The translations under genes were made by a program, and so were the position numbers. Source: Oxalobacteraceae bacterium (GTDB lineage: Bacteria; Pseudomonadota; Gammaproteobacteria; Burkholderiales; Burkholderiaceae_D). Taken from it: a DNA stretch of 64,000 nucleotides. Below the pieces are notes generated by a model, which worked only from the letters and a program-made list of their open reading frames with translations, made no database searches and had not been told where the DNA came from. Of the stretch, positions 33,649 to 43,860 are shown piece after piece; position 1 is the stretch's first letter, and each line of letters opens with the position of its first letter. The stretch spans positions 8,736-72,735 of the forward strand of contig JAIZVZ010000008.1 in the NCBI GenBank assembly GCA_021768485.1, written 5' to 3'.

Positions 33649-35124
33649 TCAATCGGGTGTTTGCCACAGGGCGAGCGCCGCATAGCCGCGCCACGGCGAC
33701 CAGGCCTGCGCGCGCGCCGCCAATTGTTTTTCGCTGAGCCGCACGCCGTCTGCGGCGGCCGCTTTTTGCAAACCGAGGTCGCCGGCCGGAAAGGCGTCCG
33801 GAAAGCGCAGCGCCCGCAGCGCAATATAATGCGCAGTCCAGTCGCCGATGCCGCGCACCGTTTTCAATGAGGCGATGGCCTCGTCCAAGCCGGTGCCGGG
33901 GCGCAGGTCGAGATTGCCGTTTGCCGCAAATTGCGCCAGTCCGACGATGGTCGCGGCGCGCGCGGCCGGCATGCCAAGCTGCGCAATGGCGGCGATGTCG
34001 GCCTGCGCAAGGTGCGCGGCGTCGGGGAAATAATGCGTGAGCGTGCCGTCGCCATTGCCGCCGGCATCGAGCGGCGAACCAAAGCGCGCCACCAGGCGGG
34101 CGGCGATGGTGGTGGCGCCGGCGACCGATACCTGCTGGCCGAGTACGGCGCGCACAGCCAGTTCGAAGGCATCGAACGCGCCCGGCACGCGCAGTCCCGG
34201 CGCGGCGTCGACGATCGCTCGCAGCAAGCGATCGTGGCGCAGATGGGCATGAATGAGGCCAGGATTGGCGTCGAGATCGAACTGCTGGCGGACCCGCGCC
34301 AGCAAAGGCATCAGGACCGGTGTCAGGCTCGCCGGCAGTGCCAGCTTCAGTTGCGCGCGCGCGTCGTCATGCGTGATGCGCAGCACGCCGCGGCATGCAC
34401 CGAGCAGCACGCTGCGCGTATAGCCCGGTTCATCGAGGTCGATGCGTTCGACGCCGGCGATCGCACGCGGCGCCAGGTAGCGCAGCAGCCGCAGCCAGTC
34501 GAACGGCGGCCGGTAGGCCAGCCGCAGCACGATCGTTTCGTCTTTCGTCAGCGCACTGGCTCCCGCGCTGGCCGTACTGCGACGCAGCGCGCCCGGCGCC
34601 ATCCGGTAGCGCGCGGCGAACAAGCTGTTAAAACGGCGCACGCTGCCAAAACCGGCGGCGAAGGCGATCTCGCTCACCGTCAGCGGCGTTTCCTGCAATA
34701 GTTTTTTTGCAAACAGCAAGCGTTGGGTTTGCGCCAGCTCGATGGGCGTGACGCCGAACTGCTGCAGCAAGACGCGCCGCAGTTGGCGCGACGACAGGCC
34801 GGCCGCTTGTGCCAGCTGTTCCACATTGCCATGGTTGAGGGCGCCGGCGGCAATCCGCTGCCACAGCGCATGGGCGAGATTGGCTTGCACGGCATACGGT
34901 GCCAATTCCGGGCGGCAGCGCAGACAGGGGCGGAAACCGGCCGCTTCGGCGCTGGCGGCGCAATTGAAAAATACGCAGGAAGCGGCACGCGGGGTCTTGG
35001 CCGGGCATACAGGGCGGCAATAAATGCCGGTGCTCTTGACGCCGGTAAAAAACACGCCGTCGAAGCGCGGGTCGCGCGCTTGCAGGGCGGCATAGCAACT
35101 GGCGTGGGCGGGAGCGGTATCCAT
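33649..35124 (-). CDS. Ada N-terminal (Zn/methylphosphotriester) domain, AraC HTH and AlkA-type DNA-3-methyladenine glycosylase II fusion
   Basis: YCRPVCPAK...FRPCLRC Cys cluster, an AraC-type HTH (TVSEIAFAAGFGSVRRFNSLF), and HhH-GPD (VRGIGDWTAHYIALRAL). Confidence 0.88.
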   Translation of the reverse strand: MDTAPAHASCYAALQARDPRFDGVFFTGVKSTGIYCRPVCPAKTPRAASCVFFNCAASAEAAGFRPCLRCRPELAPYAVQANLAHALWQRIAAGALNHGNVEQLAQAAGLSSRQLRRVLLQQFGVTPIELAQTQRLLFAKKLLQETPLTVSEIAFAAGFGSVRRFNSLFAARYRMAPGALRRSTASAGASALTKDETIVLRLAYRPPFDWLRLLRYLAPRAIAGVERIDLDEPGYTRSVLLGACRGVLRITHDDARAQLKLALPASLTPVLMPLLARVRQQFDLDANPGLIHAHLRHDRLLRAIVDAAPGLRVPGAFDAFELAVRAVLGQQVSVAGATTIAARLVARFGSPLDAGGNGDGTLTHYFPDAAHLAQADIAAIAQLGMPAARAATIVGLAQFAANGNLDLRPGTGLDEAIASLKTVRGIGDWTAHYIALRALRFPDAFPAGDLGLQKAAAADGVRLSEKQLAARAQAWSPWRGYAALALWQTPD

Positions 35125-35156: not shown

Positions 35157-35975
35157 CTAGCCGTTTTCGGACATCCTTGTCGGGCGAGGCGCGCCGGTGC
35201 GGCCGGAGATGCGGCGCCGGCGCAGCAACTGGCGCACGATGCCGGCCGAGTAATGGCTGGCCACGCGGCGCAGGAATTCATCGAAGGCGACATGGGCGCT
35301 GTCGTCGGCCCGATCCGAGACGGTGCGCAAGACGGCGCACGGCACGCCGTATTCATGGCAAATCTGCGCCACTGCCGCGCCTTCCATTTCGACGGCGAGC
35401 AGATCGGGCAGCAGCGCGCGCAGGCGCGCCACTTCGCTGGCGCTGCCGATGAACTGGTCGCCGCTGGCGATCAGCCCCTGATGGAGCGCCGGTTGCGCGA
35501 TGCCGAACGCGGCCAGTGTTTCGGCGCCGACCGCCGACAGCAGATTGTTGGCGAAAAACGCCTCGGCGGCGTGCAGCAGTTCGCGGGTCAAGGTGTCGTC
35601 GGTGGCAAAGCGTTCGATCCCGAGCAGCGGTACCTGATGGCGCGGAAACAGCGGCCGCGCATCGAGGTCGTGCTGGATCAGGCTGGTGGCGACGACCACA
35701 TCGCCGACGTGGGTCTGCGCAGCGACGCCGCCGGCCAATCCCGTAAATACGATGGCATTGACGCCGAATTCGCGGATCAGCGTCACCGTCGTGGCCGCGG
35801 CGGCGACCTTGCCGAGACGGGCCAGCACCACGACCACCGGCTGGCCGTCGATCTCGCCGGCATAATAGTCGCGCATGCCGATCCGGCGGCACTGGGCGCC
35901 GCTTGTTTCATGCTGCATCAGCGCGATCAGGTCGGCGATTTCATCATGCATTGCCGCCAGTATTCCTAGTGTCAT
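35157..35975 (-). CDS. mtnN: 5'-methylthioadenosine/S-adenosylhomocysteine nucleosidase family protein
   Basis: LGILAAMHDE, FTGLAGG, VEMEGAAVAQIC, RTVSDRAD. A basic C-terminal extension is present. Confidence 0.8.
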   Translation of the reverse strand: MTLGILAAMHDEIADLIALMQHETSGAQCRRIGMRDYYAGEIDGQPVVVVLARLGKVAAAATTVTLIREFGVNAIVFTGLAGGVAAQTHVGDVVVATSLIQHDLDARPLFPRHQVPLLGIERFATDDTLTRELLHAAEAFFANNLLSAVGAETLAAFGIAQPALHQGLIASGDQFIGSASEVARLRALLPDLLAVEMEGAAVAQICHEYGVPCAVLRTVSDRADDSAHVAFDEFLRRVASHYSAGIVRQLLRRRRISGRTGAPRPTRMSENG

Positions 35976-35993: not shown

Positions 35994-38900
35994 TTATTTG
36001 TCTTCAATGTCGACCTTGACCAGATTATCGTCTGGTTTGCGATCGATCAGCTTGTTATCGGGATCGATGCCGGCCTTGGCCGGTACACCCTTGACCACCA
36101 TGGTCCAGCTGGCATCGGCTTTGTTCATCCATTTCCGCTCGCGCAGCAAGGGCAGGCCCTGGGCATCGTCGGCGCCGATCTCGATATAGTCGTGCAAGGG
36201 CATTTCCTTTTCGGCGCCGAGGTTTCCGGCGCGCACTTTACTGGCATGCGCCGTCAGCGTCAAGTCGTAGTTGCCGTCGGCCCGCTTTCTGGCGCTGGCC
36301 TTGAGCGCGCGATTTTCATACAGGACGATCGATTCGAACAAATCGTCGATCAGGTAGCGCATCGGTTCCGGCGTGGCCCGGCGCAGGGCGTCGACCAGCA
36401 CGGTGGCGCTCGGATACGGTGCGCCGCGGTAAGCGTCGCGCTGCAGCAGCTCGCGCAGCACGGCGTTGACGGTTTGCTCGCCTATCATGTCTTGCAGCTG
36501 ATACATGACCAGGCTGCCCTTGTTGTAATGGATGTACCCCTGGTTTTCGTTTTGCGCCAGCGGTAATTCCTGCTTGTTCTCCATGCTGCGGCCACGCAGA
36601 TACTGATCGAGTTCATAGCGCAGGAAGCGCCGCATCCTGGCCGGGCCGTAGGTCTGTTTCATGACCATCAGGGCTGAGTACTGCGCCAGCGTCTCGCTGA
36701 GCAGCGTCGCCCCGCGCGTGTCGCCGGCCACCAGCTGATGGGCCCACCATTGATGCGCCACCTCGTGCGCGGTCACATAAAACGGGAAGTTGACGTCTTT
36801 CGGGTCGTTGGCGTCGACCTTGGCGATAAAGCCCAGGCTTTCCGAATATGGAATCGTGTTCGGGAACGACTGCGCAAAGGCGGCATAACGCGGAAATTCG
36901 ACGATGCGCACTTGCCGGTGCTGGTAGGGGCTGAAATTTTTCGTATCGTAATCGAGCGAGGCCTTGACCCCTTGGATCATGGTGGCGAGATTGTATTCGT
37001 GGCCGGGCTGGTAATAAATATCGATTGCCACGCCGTGCCAGGCGTCGTGCCTGACGGCATAGCGGGCTGACTGGAAGGCATAGAAATTGAGAATCGGCTT
37101 ATCCATCGTGTAATGGAAATAGCTGCGCCCGTTGGCCTGCCATTGCCTGTCGAGGTAGCCGGGCGCCAGCGCGATCTGGTCGGCGCTGGTGCTGACGGTG
37201 GCATCGAAGGTGATCCAGTCGGCATCGTTGCTGATGTAATTGTTGGCCAGGCCTTTCGGATCGTCGCGCGCCGCCACCACCTCTTTCGGCAGGCCGTTTT
37301 TTTTGCGGTCGCGGTCGTCATGCAATTCGAACTGCTTCTGATAGCCGATCTGCGGCATCAGGCCGCTGTTGAAAAAGGTGCCGTTTTCGCGCACCGGCGT
37401 CTCTTCGCCGAGGCCGAAGATGCCTTTCGGCGCGAAGCTCAACGTGAAATCCATTTGCATCTTGTCGCCGGCCGCCAGCGGCTGTTGCAGGCGATAGCTG
37501 TAAAAGCCCGATTTCTTGTCGATGATGGCGCTGGTGGTGGGCCGCGAAAACAGCACGCTGCTGCTGTTCGGGTCTTCGCTCAGCTGGATATACAGTTCGC
37601 GGATCGCCGCGCCGCTGCGGTTTTCGAGCTGGTAGTGGCCCTTGATGACGGCGCTGCGCGCGGCCGGATCGAGGTCGACCGCCAGTTTGACGTCGGTGAT
37701 GCGCGGCTGCGCCACGCCCTCATATTGCTTGTAGCGGCGCTCGTATTGCGCGCGCAATTCCTGTTTTGTCGAGGTGCTCTGGTAATCGTTGAGAATATTC
37801 ATGTTGTAGAACACGATCGCGCCGGCGCCGCAAAACACGAGCAGGCCGCCGCCCAGCGTTGCCAGCACGCCGCTGCTCAGGCGCCGCCGCGCCACCTGCC
37901 AGCGTGTGCGCCAGTCGGCATTCGTGCCGCGCGCCCACATTATCAGCGACAGCGCCACCAGCATCAGCGCCGCCCCGCTCCAGTAGATATCGAGCCAGGT
38001 TTCGCGCGCCAGATAATGCCCGTAGCCGTTCATGTCCGAATAGATGAAACCGGGCGTCGAACCGTATACCAGAAGCGGATGTTCGAGGCCGATCGAACTG
38101 GCGGCGATGCTGATGACGTAGTACACAATCATCGCAAAATAGGCCAGGTATTTTTGATTGATTAATACTTGCAAGGCGATTGCCAGGACGGCCAGCAGGG
38201 CATAGCTCGGCAGCTGGATCAGCAGCAGCTGTTGCGCATAGAGCAGCGGTTCCAGATGCGTATAGCCTTTGGCCAGCTGGATCGTCATGCCGCAGGCCAT
38301 GACGACCAGCAGCAACAGGGCCTGGATGATAATCAGGGAAAATAATTTGGCCAGCAAAGGCAGCCAGACCGGCGTCGGCAGCGCATCGAGCATCAGCGCA
38401 ATGCCGGCTTCGCGCTCGCGCCAGACCAGTTCGCCGGCATAGAAGGTGGTGATGATCAGCATGAATAGCGCAAAGCCGCCGCTGACCAGTTCCAGCACCT
38501 GATAGGTGACCGGATAGGTATTGGTGCCGTACATCTTGCCGAGCGAAGCGGCCATCGCGAACATGAACAGCACGCCGGCCAGCACGATGACAAAGAAATA
38601 AATGTTTTTTGCCGTCTCGCGCACATTGAGCCAGGTGGTGCGCAGCAGCAGCCGGCTCATGCCGGCGCGCGAAAATTGCGGCGCATAGCGCGGCGCGACA
38701 ACGGCGGCCGCGGTGTCGGCCGCAGTGCCGGCCCGGGCGCCGCGCGGCTTGTCGCCGCCGCCGTTGAAGGCCGCCGTAAAGCGGAAGCGCCAGTAGCCGA
38801 TGCACAGCACGATGACGCCGATGCTGCACCAGAGGATGCGGTTGAGCAGATAGACGCCGGTAAATGGAATCGGCCGCACATTTTTGTCGGCGATGGTCCA

Positions 38901-39575
38901 GTATTCGGTCAGGCGCGCAATGGCGCGTGAACCGAAGGGATCGATCAGCGCTGCCAGCGTCTTGTTGTCGATATCGCGCGAGAGCGGGCCGGCGATCAGA
39001 TAGCCGATCAGCAGCACCACGCTGGCGACATAGACCGGCAGCATGCGTCGCGTCAGCGCGGCGAGCACGAAGAAAATCGCGCCGAAAATGAACAGATTGG
39101 GCAGCAGATTGAACAGATAGGGCAGCAGATAGCTCGAGAGCGTGGCCTGGCCGAGGCGCTCGGCGTCGATGCCGGGCAATAGCGCGCCGAGCCAGGCGCC
39201 GAGCCCGATGCTCGAGAAAATCGCCAGCAGCGCCAGATAGGCGCCGAGGAAGCGGCCGAACAGGTATTGGCGCTTGCTGATCGGGGTGCTGTAAAAGAAG
39301 TGGTGCATGCCGTATTCGAAATCCTGCTGCACCGAACGGCCCATCATGGCCGCCACTTCGACCACGCCCAGATAGCCGAGCGTGGTAATCGTTATCGCCA
39401 GTGCGAATGGCGAATTGATGAAGATTTTGCTGCCGAAAGAAATATTGGCATCCTTGAACAGGCCGCCGGCGGCGGCCATCCACAACATGGCCAGGATGAA
39501 GAACATGCCGAAATAGACATAGGTCGACAGCATTTTCAGGCGCTGGCGCAGCTCGAAGCGAGCGATGGCGATCAT
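35994..39575 (-). CDS. ABC-2 type permease (about 13 hydrophobic helices) fused to a C-terminal M1-family (gluzincin) metallopeptidase domain
   Basis: 1193 aa. The N-terminal ~620 aa is polytopic. The C-terminal part has HEVAHQWW...LLSETLAQY (HExxH followed by Glu) and [14 protein letters not shown]. Confidence 0.85.
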
Positions 39576-39584
39576 GGCATTCCT

Positions 39585-40484
39585 TTACGCGAGGACGGCG
39601 GCCGGGCGGCGCGTGTCGCAACCGGCAATGGCCGCAAAATAGACGTCTTCGAGGTCGCCTGCCACCGGCTCGAAGCCGTCGCCGGGATGCTCGTCGCTAT
39701 AGACGTGAATCCGGGTGCGGCCGGCCAGCAGGCGGGTCGAGATCACGCTATGTTTTTGTCCGTACGCCGGCAGCTCGCTCTTGGCGATGAAGCGTGCCCA
39801 GATCTTGCCCTGGATTGCCGCCACCTGCTGCATTGGTTCGCCGGTCAGCAGCAACTGGCCCTGGTTGATGACGGCCATTTGCGAACAGAGGTCGGCGACG
39901 TCGCTGACGATATGGGTCGACAGGATGACGATCTTATCGTCGCCGATGTCGGACAGCAGGTTGTGAAAGCGGACCCGTTCTTCGGGATCGAGGCCGGCCG
40001 TCGGTTCGTCGACGATGATCAGCTTGGGGTCGCCCAGCAGCGCCTGGGCGATGCCGAAGCGCTGCCGCATGCCGCCCGAAAAGCCGCCGAGCTGCTTGTT
40101 GCGCACATCGTAGAGATTGGTCTGGTGCAGCAGGCCCAGCACCACTTCCTTGCGGCGGCGCTTGTCGCTCAAGCCCTTCAGTACGGCGAAATGGTCGAGC
40201 AATTCGTAAGGACTGACTTTCGGATACAGACCGAAATCTTGCGGCAGATAACCGAGCATGCGGCGCACCGCGTCTTTTTCGTCGAGCACATCGAGTTCAC
40301 CAAGAAACACCGAGCCGCTATCTGCTTCCTGCAAGGTCGCCAGCGTGCGCATCAAGGTCGATTTGCCGGCGCCATTGGGACCGAGCAAGCCGAACATCCC
40401 GGCCGGAATGGTCAGCGAAATATTTTTTAATGCCTCGACACCGTTGGCATAGGTCTTGGACAGATTGCTGATGCTTAATTTCAT
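39585..40484 (-). CDS. ABC transporter ATP-binding protein, partner of the permease-peptidase
   Basis: Walker A GPNGAGKST, signature SGGMRQRFGIAQA, Walker B IIVDEPTAG. I chose the ATG at 40484 (MKLSISNLSKTY). Its stop is 9 nt before the next start. Confidence 0.88.
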   Translation of the reverse strand: MKLSISNLSKTYANGVEALKNISLTIPAGMFGLLGPNGAGKSTLMRTLATLQEADSGSVFLGELDVLDEKDAVRRMLGYLPQDFGLYPKVSPYELLDHFAVLKGLSDKRRRKEVVLGLLHQTNLYDVRNKQLGGFSGGMRQRFGIAQALLGDPKLIIVDEPTAGLDPEERVRFHNLLSDIGDDKIVILSTHIVSDVADLCSQMAVINQGQLLLTGEPMQQVAAIQGKIWARFIAKSELPAYGQKHSVISTRLLAGRTRIHVYSDEHPGDGFEPVAGDLEDVYFAAIAGCDTRRPAAVLA

Positions 40485-40738
40485 GTACCGCTCCTGATGT
40501 ATGGGCGAATTTCTTGGTGGAAATATGCCATGCTTGCATGTTCTCACTGTAGCGCGCGCGACGGCGCTGCGCGCGCGCTGTGCGACAGGGTGCATTATTG
40601 CTGGTGCAGAATGCAAATTGTTGCGTTGAAAAGCCGTGCCGCACGCTCGCGTCGCTATTGATCATGGTTAAATTTGCATTGTGAAGAGTGGATCTACAAT
40701 ACCGATTTGTTGTTTCTTTACTTTAAATTTCCTGGGTT

Positions 40739-41929
40739 TTAATTTCTTAACAATACTTGTTCGCGCGAACACCACCAGCGGCAAAAACGCAGCAAGATGC
40801 CGGCGATCACTGTCGTCGATAAAAAAATCAATAAAAACATCCGGTAATCCATGGTGCCCTTGACCAGTTCGCGCATTGCCAGTGAAACATTGGTCAGTGG
40901 CACCAGGGCCCAGCCCCAGTTCAGCGTCACCCCCGGCAGCACCGCCAGCATGACGGGCAGCAGCACGACCAGCATCAGCGGCTGGATATAGCCTTGCGCT
41001 TCCTTAAAGCTTTTTGCATAGAGCGAAATCGAGAGCAAGAGCGCGGCAAAGATGGCGGCGGTCGGCAACAGCATCAGCGCCAGCATGGCCAAGTCGGCGC
41101 CGCCGATGCTGCGCATCATCTGCGCCAGACCGGGATCGATGGCATTGCCGAAAAATGTCACCAGCAGCGCAATGCTGATCACCATCAGCAGAGCCGAAGT
41201 CAGGCCGGCGGTGAAGATGACGCCGAATTTGGCCAGCACCAGCGCGCCGCGCGAAACCGGCGCCAGCAACAGCGATTCGAGCGTGCCGCGTTCCTTTTCG
41301 CCGGCGCCGATATCGATGGCCGGATACATGGCCGCGATCAGGCAAACGATGACGAGGATATAAGGCAGCACGCGGCCGACGATCTCGCCCATCTGTTCGC
41401 GCTGGTCGGCGCTCGAATGCTTTTCGAGCGCGATCGGGTTGAGCAAAAACGCCAGTTGCTGGTCGCTCAGGTGCATGGCCGGCAGCGCATTGCGCCGCAA
41501 GGCGCCATTTTCAGCATCGATGACGGTGCGCACGCGTTTGGCGACGACGTCGACTGCGGTCGCGGTGTTGTAGTGCAATTGCACACGTATGCCGCCGGCG
41601 CCGGCAGCGGCCGGCGCCGGGACGATGACCAGAGCAAAGCGGATCTTGTCGCTGTTGATGGCGCTGTTGATCTGGCTTTGGCTGGCGATCTCGACCAATT
41701 TGAAGGTTTTGTCGGCGGCGAAGCGGGCCGCCAGCGCCGGTGCGTTTTCCTGGCCGAAGACGGCATAGGACAGCTTGGCCTGGTAAGCATTGCGGCTCAT
41801 GACATAGGAAATATAACCGAAGCCGAAACTGAGCAGCGGCATTACCAGAATCGGGATGATGACCGTGAAGATCAGCGTCTTGCGGTCGCGCATCAACTCG
41901 CCGATCTCCTTCAGATAAATGGTCCACAT
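40739..41929 (-). CDS. ABC-2 family permease (NatB-like)
   Basis: 396 aa. One N-terminal transmembrane segment, a large extracytoplasmic loop, then about 5 C-terminal transmembrane segments. It lies 1 nt after the stop of the ATPase gene. Confidence 0.8.
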   Translation of the reverse strand: MWTIYLKEIGELMRDRKTLIFTVIIPILVMPLLSFGFGYISYVMSRNAYQAKLSYAVFGQENAPALAARFAADKTFKLVEIASQSQINSAINSDKIRFALVIVPAPAAAGAGGIRVQLHYNTATAVDVVAKRVRTVIDAENGALRRNALPAMHLSDQQLAFLLNPIALEKHSSADQREQMGEIVGRVLPYILVIVCLIAAMYPAIDIGAGEKERGTLESLLLAPVSRGALVLAKFGVIFTAGLTSALLMVISIALLVTFFGNAIDPGLAQMMRSIGGADLAMLALMLLPTAAIFAALLLSISLYAKSFKEAQGYIQPLMLVVLLPVMLAVLPGVTLNWGWALVPLTNVSLAMRELVKGTMDYRMFLLIFLSTTVIAGILLRFCRWWCSREQVLLRN

Positions 41930-41930
41930 C

Positions 41931-42734
41931 TTATTGTTCCTCTTCGATCACGCGCACGAAGGCATCGACGAGCTCGTGGCGGCCGGCGCGATGGCGCAGC
42001 TCGGCCAGACTGCCGAAAAACGCCGTCCGGCCGTGATTGATGATGCACACCCGGTCGCACAGTTTTTCAACCTCGTGCAAATGGTGGGTCGAAAATATCA
42101 GCGGTATGCCGAGCACTTTATAGCTGGCGATAAAATCGAGCAAAGTCTGGGCGGCCATCACGTCAAGGCCCGTGGTCGGCTCGTCGAGGATGACGACGGC
42201 CGGATGGTGAACCACGGCGCGCGCGATTGCGCATTTCTGTTTCATGCCGGTCGAGAGCTGGTCGGCGCGGCGTTCGGCGAAGTCGTGCATGTTCAGCAGG
42301 GTGAACAGGTCGTCGATCCGCGCTTTCAGCTGCGCCGGCGCCATGCGGTGCAGGCGGCCGAAATATTCGACGTTTTCGCGCGTCGACAGGCGGCCGTACA
42401 GGCCGGTGCTGCCGGACAGGAAACCGATTTTCTGGCGAGCCATCTGCGGCTCTTTCAGCAAATCGACGCCGTCGAGCATGACGCTGCCGCTGTCGGCCGC
42501 CAGCGCCGTCGACAGCAGGCGCAAGGTCGTGGTCTTGCCGGCGCCGTTAGGGCCGAGCAGGCCCAGCACTTCGCCGTTTTGACACGCAAAACCGACATCG
42601 CTGACGGCCTTAAACCAGCCGTCGTGCTGGCGGCGGTCGGCGGCCGCACTGTCGGCCGGCGGTGCGGCGCTTTTGCGGGCGGCGCGCGTGGAGGAAATAC
42701 GAAAACGCTTGCTCAGATTCTTTACTTCTATCAT
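41931..42734 (-). CDS. ABC transporter ATP-binding protein (NatA-like)
   Basis: Walker A GPNGAGKTT, signature STGMKQKCAIARA, Walker B VILDEPTTG. Confidence 0.88.
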   Translation of the reverse strand: MIEVKNLSKRFRISSTRAARKSAAPPADSAAADRRQHDGWFKAVSDVGFACQNGEVLGLLGPNGAGKTTTLRLLSTALAADSGSVMLDGVDLLKEPQMARQKIGFLSGSTGLYGRLSTRENVEYFGRLHRMAPAQLKARIDDLFTLLNMHDFAERRADQLSTGMKQKCAIARAVVHHPAVVILDEPTTGLDVMAAQTLLDFIASYKVLGIPLIFSTHHLHEVEKLCDRVCIINHGRTAFFGSLAELRHRAGRHELVDAFVRVIEEEQ

Positions 42735-42906
42735 GCCGACATCCGATATCGAGAAAAATCATGGGCGAAATAGGGAATTTACTCTATATAATCGGATAAG
42801 TGTTATATAAGCAATAAATTTTGGCGTGATGTACAGCAGTCCGCTCAATGTTCCGGCAATCTTTCTGCTGCCTGTCTGCCTTCTTTTTCATTTTCTTTCT
42901 TTTTCG

Positions 42907-43860
42907 ATGAGTAATACAGAGGCTTTGCCCCGCTCCGCCGATCTGCACGCCGGCGACTGCGCCAATTGCGGCGCCGCCCTGGGCGGTCCCTATTGTGCCC
43001 AATGCGGTCAGCACCACCATGTCGAGATGCCGACCTTATGGGAATTTGTGCATGAATATCTGCATCATTACGTCGCCCTCGAGGGCAAGCTCGGGCGCAC
43101 TCTAGGGCTGTTATTGTGCCGTCCCGGGCGCCTGAGCCTCGAATACCTGGCCGGGCGGCGCCAGCGCTATGTAAAGCCGCTGCAATTGTATTTCACGGTC
43201 AGCTTTTTATTCTTTATCGCGCTCAGCTTTCACGGCAGTACGCCGCCGGACGAAGCGGGCGCCGGGCCGCGCGGGCAGAAATATGCCGCCGTCTCGATTT
43301 TGCAGAAACAAGGCGAGCTTGTCGTGCTGAATAGAGCAGGCTCGGCGCCGGCCAGCGCGGCCAATGCCGGCGGCGCCGAAGGCCTCTCGTTCGATTTCGG
43401 TTTCGCGGCGCCGGCAATGCGGCGCTGGAATGCGCATCTGAATGCGCGCCTGGCTGAATTTTCGGCCGACCCCATGCCGGCCTTGCGCAAATTGGGCCGG
43501 CAAATGCTCGGCTATGCACCGTATGGCGTATTTTTTCTGGTGCCGGTGTTCGCCCTTTTCCTGTGGCTACTGTTTTATCGGCGGCGCTTGCGTTACGGCG
43601 CCCATCTGGTGTTTGCGCTGCATCTGCATGCGCTGAGCTTTTTATTGTTTTTGCTATTGTTATTGCTGCCTTTGCCATCCTGGGGCGGCTTTGCCGGTTT
43701 TTGTGCGCTGACGGCGTATTTTGTGCTGGCCATGCGGACCATGTATGGCGGGCGCTGGCGGTGGCTGCTGGCACGCCTGGGCCTGCTGTTTTCCGTGTAT
43801 GGGCTGTGCGCCGGCCTGGCCTTGCTGGCGCTGACCATGCTGGCCCTGAGCGCGGCATAG
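42907..43860 (+). CDS. DUF3667-like membrane protein with an N-terminal zinc ribbon
   Basis: CANCGAALGGPYCAQCGQ followed by FVHEYLHHYVALEGKLGRTL and several transmembrane segments. I chose the ATG at 42907. Confidence 0.6.
   Translation: MSNTEALPRSADLHAGDCANCGAALGGPYCAQCGQHHHVEMPTLWEFVHEYLHHYVALEGKLGRTLGLLLCRPGRLSLEYLAGRRQRYVKPLQLYFTVSFLFFIALSFHGSTPPDEAGAGPRGQKYAAVSILQKQGELVVLNRAGSAPASAANAGGAEGLSFDFGFAAPAMRRWNAHLNARLAEFSADPMPALRKLGRQMLGYAPYGVFFLVPVFALFLWLLFYRRRLRYGAHLVFALHLHALSFLLFLLLLLLPLPSWGGFAGFCALTAYFVLAMRTMYGGRWRWLLARLGLLFSVYGLCAGLALLALTMLALSAA

Follow-up and report, generated by a model that had tools for sequence, protein, structure and literature searches.

An ABC-2 permease fused to an M1-type peptidase with a predicted periplasmic location, and its partner ATPase, at a locus from an Oxalobacteraceae bacterium

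Genes at the locus and topology of the membrane part

Two adjacent genes lie on the minus strand of a 64,000-nucleotide (nt) stretch of contig JAIZVZ010000008.1 from an Oxalobacteraceae bacterium (the window, by which we mean the whole stretch analysed). One encodes an ATP-binding cassette (ABC) ATPase, and the other a single chain of 1193 amino acids (aa) in which an ABC-2 permease with 13 predicted helices is followed by a peptidase domain of the M1 family. This architecture had been proposed in an earlier reading made from the letters of the DNA and their translations (the sequence-only reading), and it is borne out by the open reading frames (ORFs), by hydropathy, by an AlphaFold2 (AF2) model and by Pfam matches. 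All of the strings quoted in that reading are present in the protein: the Arg-rich loop with the last helix (residues 556-590), HEVAH (937-941), E961 within SETLA, FAQSF (900-904) and YIHYNKG with Y1017. The ATPase gene lies upstream of the fusion gene at the distance then reported; its TAA stop codon is followed by the 9 nt AGGAATGCC, within which AGGA forms a Shine-Dalgarno-like motif, and then by the ATG of the fusion gene. The features of the two genes, including the transmembrane domains (TMDs) and helices (TM1 to TM13) and the nucleotide-binding domain (NBD), are as follows, with the evidence for each after the semicolon; Lys plus Arg counts are given as K+R, and pLDDT is the predicted local distance difference test score of AF2.

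35994..39575, minus strand: fusion gene encoding TMD1, TMD2, TM13 and the M1-like peptidase in that order, 1193 aa; ORF
39585..40484, minus strand: ABC ATPase, the NBD partner, 299 aa; ORF read from the ATG at 40484
38787..39575, minus strand: TMD1, residues 1-263, with an N-terminal connecting helix at 2-14 and TM1 to TM6; hydropathy, family conservation and AF2 helices
38670..38786, minus strand: cytoplasmic, Arg-rich linker between the TMDs, residues 264-302; pLDDT, K+R count and conservation
37941..38669, minus strand: TMD2, residues 303-545, with a connecting helix at 303-322 and TM7 to TM12; hhalign against TMD1, and ABC2_membrane_4 at 327-488
37791..37940, minus strand: Arg-rich cytoplasmic loop and TM13 (about 568-595), which takes the chain to the periplasm; hydropathy, family alignment and AF2
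36996..37790, minus strand: juxtamembrane helix 601-618 (E612 invariant) and M1 domain I, a beta domain at about 621-860; AF2 secondary structure and Foldseek
36333..36995, minus strand: M1 catalytic, thermolysin-like domain II, residues 861-1081; PF01433, PDB profile search and conservation
36864..36878, minus strand: FAQSF, residues 900-904, at the GxMEN position, with Ser903 in place of Glu; phmmer against ERAP2 and family frequencies
36693..36767, minus strand: HEVAH-x19-E zinc and catalytic motif (H937, E938, H941, E961); invariant in 144 of 144 sequences
36525..36527, minus strand: Y1017 of YIHYNKG, the Tyr that stabilises the transition state; the same residue in all 144 sequences and aligned with the catalytic Tyr of ERAP2
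35997..36332, minus strand: beta-sandwich at the C terminus (residues 1082-1193), the counterpart of M1 domain III; all-beta at 1083-1187 in AF2
40485..40738, minus strand: 254 nt lying 5' of the ATPase gene, probably the promoter and 5' untranslated region of the pair; motifs common to Oxalobacteraceae relatives

We aligned the protein with its family, using 144 full-length representatives at 34-61% identity. A hydropathy scan finds 13 hydrophobic segments arranged 6 + 6 + 1, each of which is hydrophobic in at least 96% of the representatives. The thirteenth reaches 97% of the sequences, its best window having a mean hydropathy of 1.85, and the Arg-rich loop before it carries a mean of 5.2 K+R. 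Across the whole membrane part, the predicted cytoplasmic loops contain a mean of 22.8 K+R and the periplasmic loops 12.7, with the cytoplasmic count higher in 143 of 144 sequences, a charge bias that fits an N-in/C-out topology. The linker between the two TMDs contains 11 K+R; it is the least conserved of the segments (0.21), and its residues 269-294 are disordered in the AF2 model (pLDDT below 50).

When TMD1 (residues 65-264) and TMD2 (367-547) are compared by hhalign, they match with a probability of 95.6% and an E value of 1.1e-8. The two are therefore homologous, the product of an internal duplication, and both ABC membrane domains reside in one chain. Pfam places ABC2_membrane_4 on residues 327-488 at 22.3 bits, just under the cut-off of 27, and most relatives have precomputed PF12730 or PF12698 matches. 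Of the two kinds of Pfam model that the sequence-only reading had named, Peptidase_M1 clears its gathering score, and ABC2_membrane, represented by ABC2_membrane_4, falls short.

The full-length AF2 model, built on a 65-sequence alignment, has a pLDDT of 90.4 and a predicted template modelling score (pTM) of 0.89. It contains amphipathic helices ahead of TM1 (residues 2-14) and TM7 (303-322), as well as short external helices at 202-233 between TM5 and TM6, and these are the connecting and external helices by which the type V fold is recognised, a placement with which Foldseek agrees. For a structure search of the PDB we used a separate AF2 model of residues 1-600 (pLDDT 79.7). The nearest match of this membrane model is Rv1217c (8k1m-p; about 620 aligned columns, TM-score 0.43-0.56 on the target), followed by NosY (TM-score 0.60-0.68 on the target for a single domain, at a root-mean-square deviation of about 5 Å) and then by PmtCD, CcmB, ABCG (ABCG25) and ABCA, all of type V fold. 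No solved relative of the permease came up when the PDB was searched at the sequence level, whether the query was the membrane part by itself or the profile of the family, and the fold search alone found one; by single-sequence and profile searches, no PDB entry belongs to the fusion family. As modelled, then, the membrane domains are of the type V (ABC-2) fold and nearest to Rv1217c and NosY. The FtsEX and MacB systems, which had been offered as precedent, are type VII and hence not the closest.

Both ends of a six-helix type V TMD are cytoplasmic, and it follows that a thirteenth helix must carry the C-terminal domain to the periplasm. In the AF2 model, a short cytoplasmic helix is succeeded by one long TM13 helix at 568-595. 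Hydropathy, the positive-inside counts (143 of 144) and the confident model together support a periplasmic location of the peptidase, at the outer face of the inner membrane; the odd count of 13 helices, the charge bias and the model likewise uphold the extracytoplasmic placement made from sequence alone. Cysteine makes up 0.19-0.24% of the peptidase domain, compared with 0.51% of the partner ATPases, and the peptidase domain of the window protein has no cysteine at all, which gives a faint hint of an oxidising compartment. The parity of Cys counts as an indicator of disulfides was uninformative (93 even, 51 odd).

An alternative topology, in which TM13 does not span the membrane or the helix count is even, would leave the peptidase in the cytoplasm, where a peptide would be processed before its export. 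There is precedent for such an order of events in exporters with a C39 domain: PCATs are bacteriocin ABC exporters whose C39 peptidase domain does its processing in the cytoplasm before export. The conservation of 13 segments throughout the family, the hydrophobicity of TM13, the Arg-rich loop ahead of it with the N-in/C-out charge bias, the cytoplasmic ends of the type V TMD, the single long helix of the model and the depletion of Cys all speak against it, and we regard it as scarcely credible. In the architecture and topology taken by themselves we have high confidence.

The periplasmic side of the membrane part is itself well conserved. Loops 3, 5 and 6 score 0.51-0.56, above most of the TM helices, and include the invariant residues P213, Q433 and S513; this pattern fits a functional periplasmic face. 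The TM5-TM6 loop of TMD1, which bears the external helices, contains a conserved DPFG...YWT...NT, and TMD2 has a conserved YSDMNG in a periplasmic loop and a WRERE...P motif on the cytoplasmic side. Loop 6 has a pLDDT of 82-89 when modelled with the peptidase domain and of 46-62 without it, a comparison confounded by alignments of unequal depth.

A peptidase domain of M1 type with a distinctive motif

The Pfam model Peptidase_M1 (PF01433) matches residues 874-1067 with 44 bits (gathering score 27.7, E 2.5e-11), while the NCBIfam PepN models remain far under their cut-offs for the fusion protein. In sequence searches of the PDB the matches are M1 aminopeptidases only, with ERAP2 at E 1e-9 from the single sequence and 2.5e-16 from the family profile. 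Foldseek with the full model aligns approximately 600-650 columns to ERAP1/2, PSA, IRAP and PepN (E about 1e-17), although the ERAP and PepN targets themselves are 850-910 residues long. The AF2 model accounts for the difference in that the peptidase part, at about 600 residues, comprises M1 domains I-III; the chain ends after the beta-sandwich, so that the helical domain IV is absent.

Conservation along the protein is highest in the catalytic domain (0.61), where H937, E938, H941, E961, Y1017 and K1019 are invariant in 144 of 144 representatives. Y1017 aligns with the Tyr of YNKG in ERAP2. The zinc ligands and the catalytic Tyr of the M1 signature claimed for this domain are thus in place, but the spacing given with it is not: the family as a whole has HExxH-x19-E, where x18 is canonical. 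That the peptidase is catalytically intact is, on these residues, strongly supported.

At the position where canonical M1 aminopeptidases carry GxMEN, a phmmer alignment with ERAP2 sets FAQSF directly beneath GAMEN, with Ser beneath Glu, in agreement with the alignment made by eye in the sequence-only reading. GxMEN, the exopeptidase motif of MEROPS family M1, is not intact, and its Glu, which binds the free amino terminus of the substrate, is absent family-wide. The description of the motif as degenerate did not survive the comparison, since [FY]AQ[SA]F is shared by about 140 of the 144 representatives (by position, F110/Y17, A143, Q120, S104/A35 and F124). Its conservation alongside an invariant catalytic apparatus marks it as an alternative motif that defines the family and is under selection, and not as decay.

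With both the GxMEN Glu and the capping domain IV missing, a strict aminopeptidase becomes less likely than an enzyme with endo- or oligopeptidase activity or one that attacks N-blocked peptides. The conserved replacement of GxMEN also sets the family apart as a distinct branch of the M1 fold, probably a non-aminopeptidase one.

The loss of domain IV, the gate of canonical M1 enzymes, also bears on how the ATPase might act on the peptidase. In one scheme nothing is transported: ATP-driven movements of the TMDs and their loops would open and close the tethered peptidase, taking over from the domain IV lid, and the target would be a substrate in the periplasm or the outer leaflet. Analogues would be NosDFY among type V systems and FtsEX and LolCDE among those of type VII, and the 2022 structures of NosDFY reportedly reveal conformational coupling to a periplasmic partner. 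Such mechanotransmission would suit the conserved periplasmic loops, the place of NosY among the nearest structural matches for each membrane domain, and the pTM of the full model, which suggests that the peptidase is docked in a fixed position against the membrane domains. The best match for the whole chain is nonetheless Rv1217c, for which an exporter role and a substrate cavity have been described, and we consider pure gating rather doubtful.

The family, the partner ATPase and the surrounding DNA

The fusion has been catalogued before. Myxococcus xanthus Q1D520, a protein of 1200 aa with 13 transmembrane segments (TMSs), an ABC-2 part and a C-terminal Peptidase M1, was given the number TC 3.A.1.145.1 (Getsin et al. 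2013, PMC3924187), an entry that lists no function. Relatives that are 60-63% identical to the window protein over their full length bear the specific NCBI product name 'ABC transporter permease/M1 family aminopeptidase', and several members of the family carry a NosY-type COG name at JGI. With a TC number dating from 2013 and a specific product name, the fusion is not new, and the suggestion that it had been annotated only generically falls, while the further suggestion that no member has been characterised held in the literature searched, in which the fusion appears only in the 2013 catalogue paper. Judged by its sequence and its 60-63% identity to the best named relatives, the window protein is a new Oxalobacteraceae orthologue of this known fusion. 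It shares with TC 3.A.1.145 a single chain of about 1200 aa, some 13 TMSs, a C-terminal M1 domain and an adjacent, separate ATPase.

An exhaustive search of representative sequences gave 7656 matches at E ≤ 1e-3 and 2219 clusters at E ≤ 1e-30. Among the best 150 representatives, almost every protein is full-length (about 1170-1260 aa) and none is an unfused version, the shorter matches resembling fragments at contig ends; more than 250 members align over their full length at 34-70% identity. In a scan of species-representative genomes we confirmed at least 422 loci. They fall in the Beta-, Gamma- and Alphaproteobacteria, Bacteroidota, Acidobacteriota, Gemmatimonadota and Myxococcota, all diderm, and Myxococcales loci are among the relatives confirmed by tblastn. 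The family is therefore large and architecturally rigid, and it occurs in many lineages from soil and water and of opportunistic pathogens, including Stenotrophomonas maltophilia.

Among the 70 loci with sufficient upstream DNA, drawn from five phyla, 69 have an orthologous ATPase (50-78% identity) directly upstream on the same strand, at a median gap of about 15 nt. Clustering of the flanking ORFs at 82 loci revealed no other gene family conserved across phyla. The survey of distribution and neighbours called for by the sequence-only reading thus finds a widespread family with the ATPase as its sole conserved neighbour. Since the second ABC-2 pair described below is local to Oxalobacteraceae, the two genes form a self-contained module, and that pairing with the ATPase is obligatory is strongly supported. 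At one metagenome-assembled locus (L029:4354-5307), the orthologous ATPase (63%) begins 3 nt downstream of the fusion gene instead of upstream, which may mean that the gene order is reversed there or that a second pair begins in tandem.

These counts bear on a second alternative, in which pump and peptidase are merely co-localised. The pump would export an unrelated non-peptide, such as a lipid or a drug, and the permease would be a mere anchor for an independent periplasmic M1 peptidase engaged, for example, in trimming nutrient peptides. Many type V exporters do carry lipids or drugs, eukaryotic M1 enzymes are often membrane-anchored ectoenzymes, and no peptide-related neighbour genes were found at the 82 loci. 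One helix would be enough for an anchor, however, yet the full 13-helix fusion is kept at about 1170-1260 aa by more than 140 clusters from five phyla (34-61% identity), always next to its ATPase and with no unfused version among the best 150 representatives; the aminopeptidase motif to be expected of a nutrient-trimming enzyme is, moreover, gone from the whole family. We consider mere co-localisation unlikely.

Within the genus Janthinobacterium (L002, L023, L068), there are at least three deeply diverged paralogue lineages, which are 61%, 40% and 36% identical to the window protein and 34-39% identical among themselves. The 40% lineage groups with the copies from Stenotrophomonas maltophilia (L046) and Burkholderiaceae (55-69%), and EFP.Y..FAQSF is kept in all of them. 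Divergence of this kind suggests that several specificities may have evolved on one mechanism. A role in anti-phage defence was considered and set aside, as PADLOC returned no match for the fusion and only generic ABC/AAA similarity for the ATPase.

The translation of the ATPase contains intact NBD motifs, namely Walker A (GPNGAGKST), the signature (FSGGMRQR), Walker B (LIIVDEPT) and the H-loop (STH), and with its Q-loop it has the full set of a type V exporter NBD; a C-terminal extension of approximately 75 aa follows. It matches Pfam ABC_tran at 100 bits; among NCBIfam models it comes nearest to GldA-like and DrrA-like ones, well short of the cut-off in every case. We rejected membership of the GldA/GldF/GldG system, given that the ATPase reaches 187.6 bits against a TIGR03522 cut-off of 402.6 and that the fusion has no match to a model of GldF or GldG.

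The start of the ATPase gene at 40484 is backed by a conserved AGGAG and by the alignment of relatives. Upstream of it, we compared the 5' region (about 250-300 nt) among Oxalobacteraceae relatives (L001:6790-7115, L002:6810-7115, L003:5780-6100, L007:5790-6110 and L056:5800-6110). They share TGCACyCTGGCG, then TTCAATACAATGCCATCATGTGAAAAG with a TACAAT-like -10 box, and these blocks are weaker in the window sequence than in the relatives. A sigma-54-like reading of TGCACyCTGGCG was discarded, as by eye the GG-N10-GC spacing is not maintained in every relative. No Rfam family was found in the window at the gathering threshold or in the 5' region at a permissive threshold, and a tRNA scan found nothing.

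Immediately upstream lies a second ABC-2 pair (40739..41929 and 41931..42734, both on the minus strand), which stands adjacent to or near the M1-fusion pair in Oxalobacteraceae only. Its ATPase is DrrA-like. Its 396-aa permease aligns with positions 5-400 of the 636 in the NCBIfam model NF041647 at 314 bits (cut-off 435), and is homologous to the permease half of that permease-protease family without the protease half. Divergent from the ABC cluster is a DUF3667 ORF (42826..43860, plus strand; 58.8 bits). On the other side, the genes downstream of the fusion gene (35157..35975 and 33649..35124, both minus strand) encode, directly at its 3' end, an MTA/SAH nucleosidase (NF004079, 293 bits, above the cut-off) and, beyond this, a 491-aa fusion of an Ada zinc-binding domain, an AraC-type helix-turn-helix and an AlkA-type 3-methyladenine glycosylase. 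Neither of these two genes is conserved beside the fusion in other genomes.

A proposed mechanism and comparison with known systems

We propose that the two genes encode a type V machine with a tethered, periplasmic, M1-derived peptidase that exports or extracts a substrate and cleaves it. By analogy with Rv1217c, two copies of the ATPase should dock on one 1193-aa subunit. The predicted position of the peptidase, tethered directly above the periplasmic face of the pump, is strongly supported. Binding and hydrolysis of ATP would collapse an outer-leaflet cavity and open a periplasmic gate of the membrane domains, and a peptide or peptide-like substrate, probably hydrophobic or membrane-associated, would be expelled directly into the tethered peptidase, to be cleaved there outside the cytoplasm. 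We favour such delivery over pure gating, although the two can coexist. Our probability for the statement as a whole is roughly one half; the delivery step taken by itself remains tentative, at somewhat less than even chances.

Several points weigh against this proposal. A fusion is by itself no proof of mechanistic coupling, and we found in the literature no substrate, phenotype, expression or experimental data for any member. The neighbouring genes at the 82 loci give no hint of a substrate. The Foldseek matches of the membrane part are weak, with E values of 4e-3 or worse in spite of a probability of 1.00, and the model was judged by pLDDT, pTM and secondary structure alone, measures that leave aside the orientation of the active site relative to the exit of the pump. 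Finally, the family-specific E893 (in EFPRY; 143 of 144), on the preceding strand 7 residues before the FAQSF motif, could take the place of the GxMEN Glu in space, which would still permit an aminopeptidase.

A more specific version of the proposal is a machine of the diderm inner membrane for extraction followed by destruction or processing. Here the type V module would pull hydrophobic or N-blocked peptides from the outer leaflet and feed them to an M1-derived endopeptidase that has no need to recognise an amino terminus; candidate substrates are signal-peptide remnants, lipopeptides and membrane-active antimicrobial peptides. We regard this version as unlikely though attractive in its consequences, for if true it would be the first ABC-dependent periplasmic protease and an outer-face functional counterpart of ATP-dependent proteases such as FtsH. 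The periplasm contains no ATP, and a protease mounted on an ABC engine would be among the few routes by which a diderm cell could spend cytoplasmic ATP on extracytoplasmic proteolysis.

The observation of the fusion itself is not ours. Our contribution is a sharper and testable description, to which we add the replacement of GxMEN by [FY]AQ[SA]F and the x19 spacing throughout the family, the lack of a domain IV, the internal duplication, the assignment to type V with Rv1217c as a template, and the recognition of two genes as the whole conserved unit. It makes the family a good experimental target.

Set beside known systems, the window protein has the same architecture as Q1D520 (TC 3.A.1.145.1), from which it shows no architectural difference; the entry records no topology experiment or active-site analysis. 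With NF041647, PCAT, FtsEX and MacB it shares the common theme of an ABC module joined to, or in control of, a hydrolase, but none of these involves M1: the protease of NF041647 is a CPBP intramembrane enzyme, and that of PCAT is a C39 cytoplasmic cysteine peptidase. FtsEX and MacB have the type VII ABC fold, and PCAT has type IV.

NosDFY provides a precedent for a type V ABC module that acts on a periplasmic protein domain. NosY (PDB 7O0Y and related) is the best structural match for a single TMD, although NosD forms a beta-helix protein of its own, two separate NosY chains pair as a homodimer, and the system serves the assembly of a copper centre. Closer for the chain as a whole is Rv1217c-Rv1218c of Mycobacterium tuberculosis (PDB 8K1M-8K1P), which likewise has a fused pair of six-helix TMDs, connecting helices before TM1 and TM7, and a separately encoded NBD in two copies. 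In that structure, two non-identical TMDs share one polypeptide, the separate NBD is present twice, and there is a cavity in the outer leaflet and a gate on the periplasmic side (PMC11406275). It differs in that identity is about 14%, with no match at the level of sequence, in that Rv1217c ends after TM12, without TM13 or a periplasmic enzyme, and in its actinobacterial host, where it has been implicated in efflux of rifampicin and lipids. With PepN, ERAP1/2, PSA and LTA4H, lastly, the fusion peptidase shares the fold of domains I-III, the HExxH...E zinc site and the catalytic Tyr; compared with these canonical M1 enzymes, it has [FY]AQ[SA]F for GxMEN, x19 for x18, no domain IV, and a 13-helix ABC permease as its tether.

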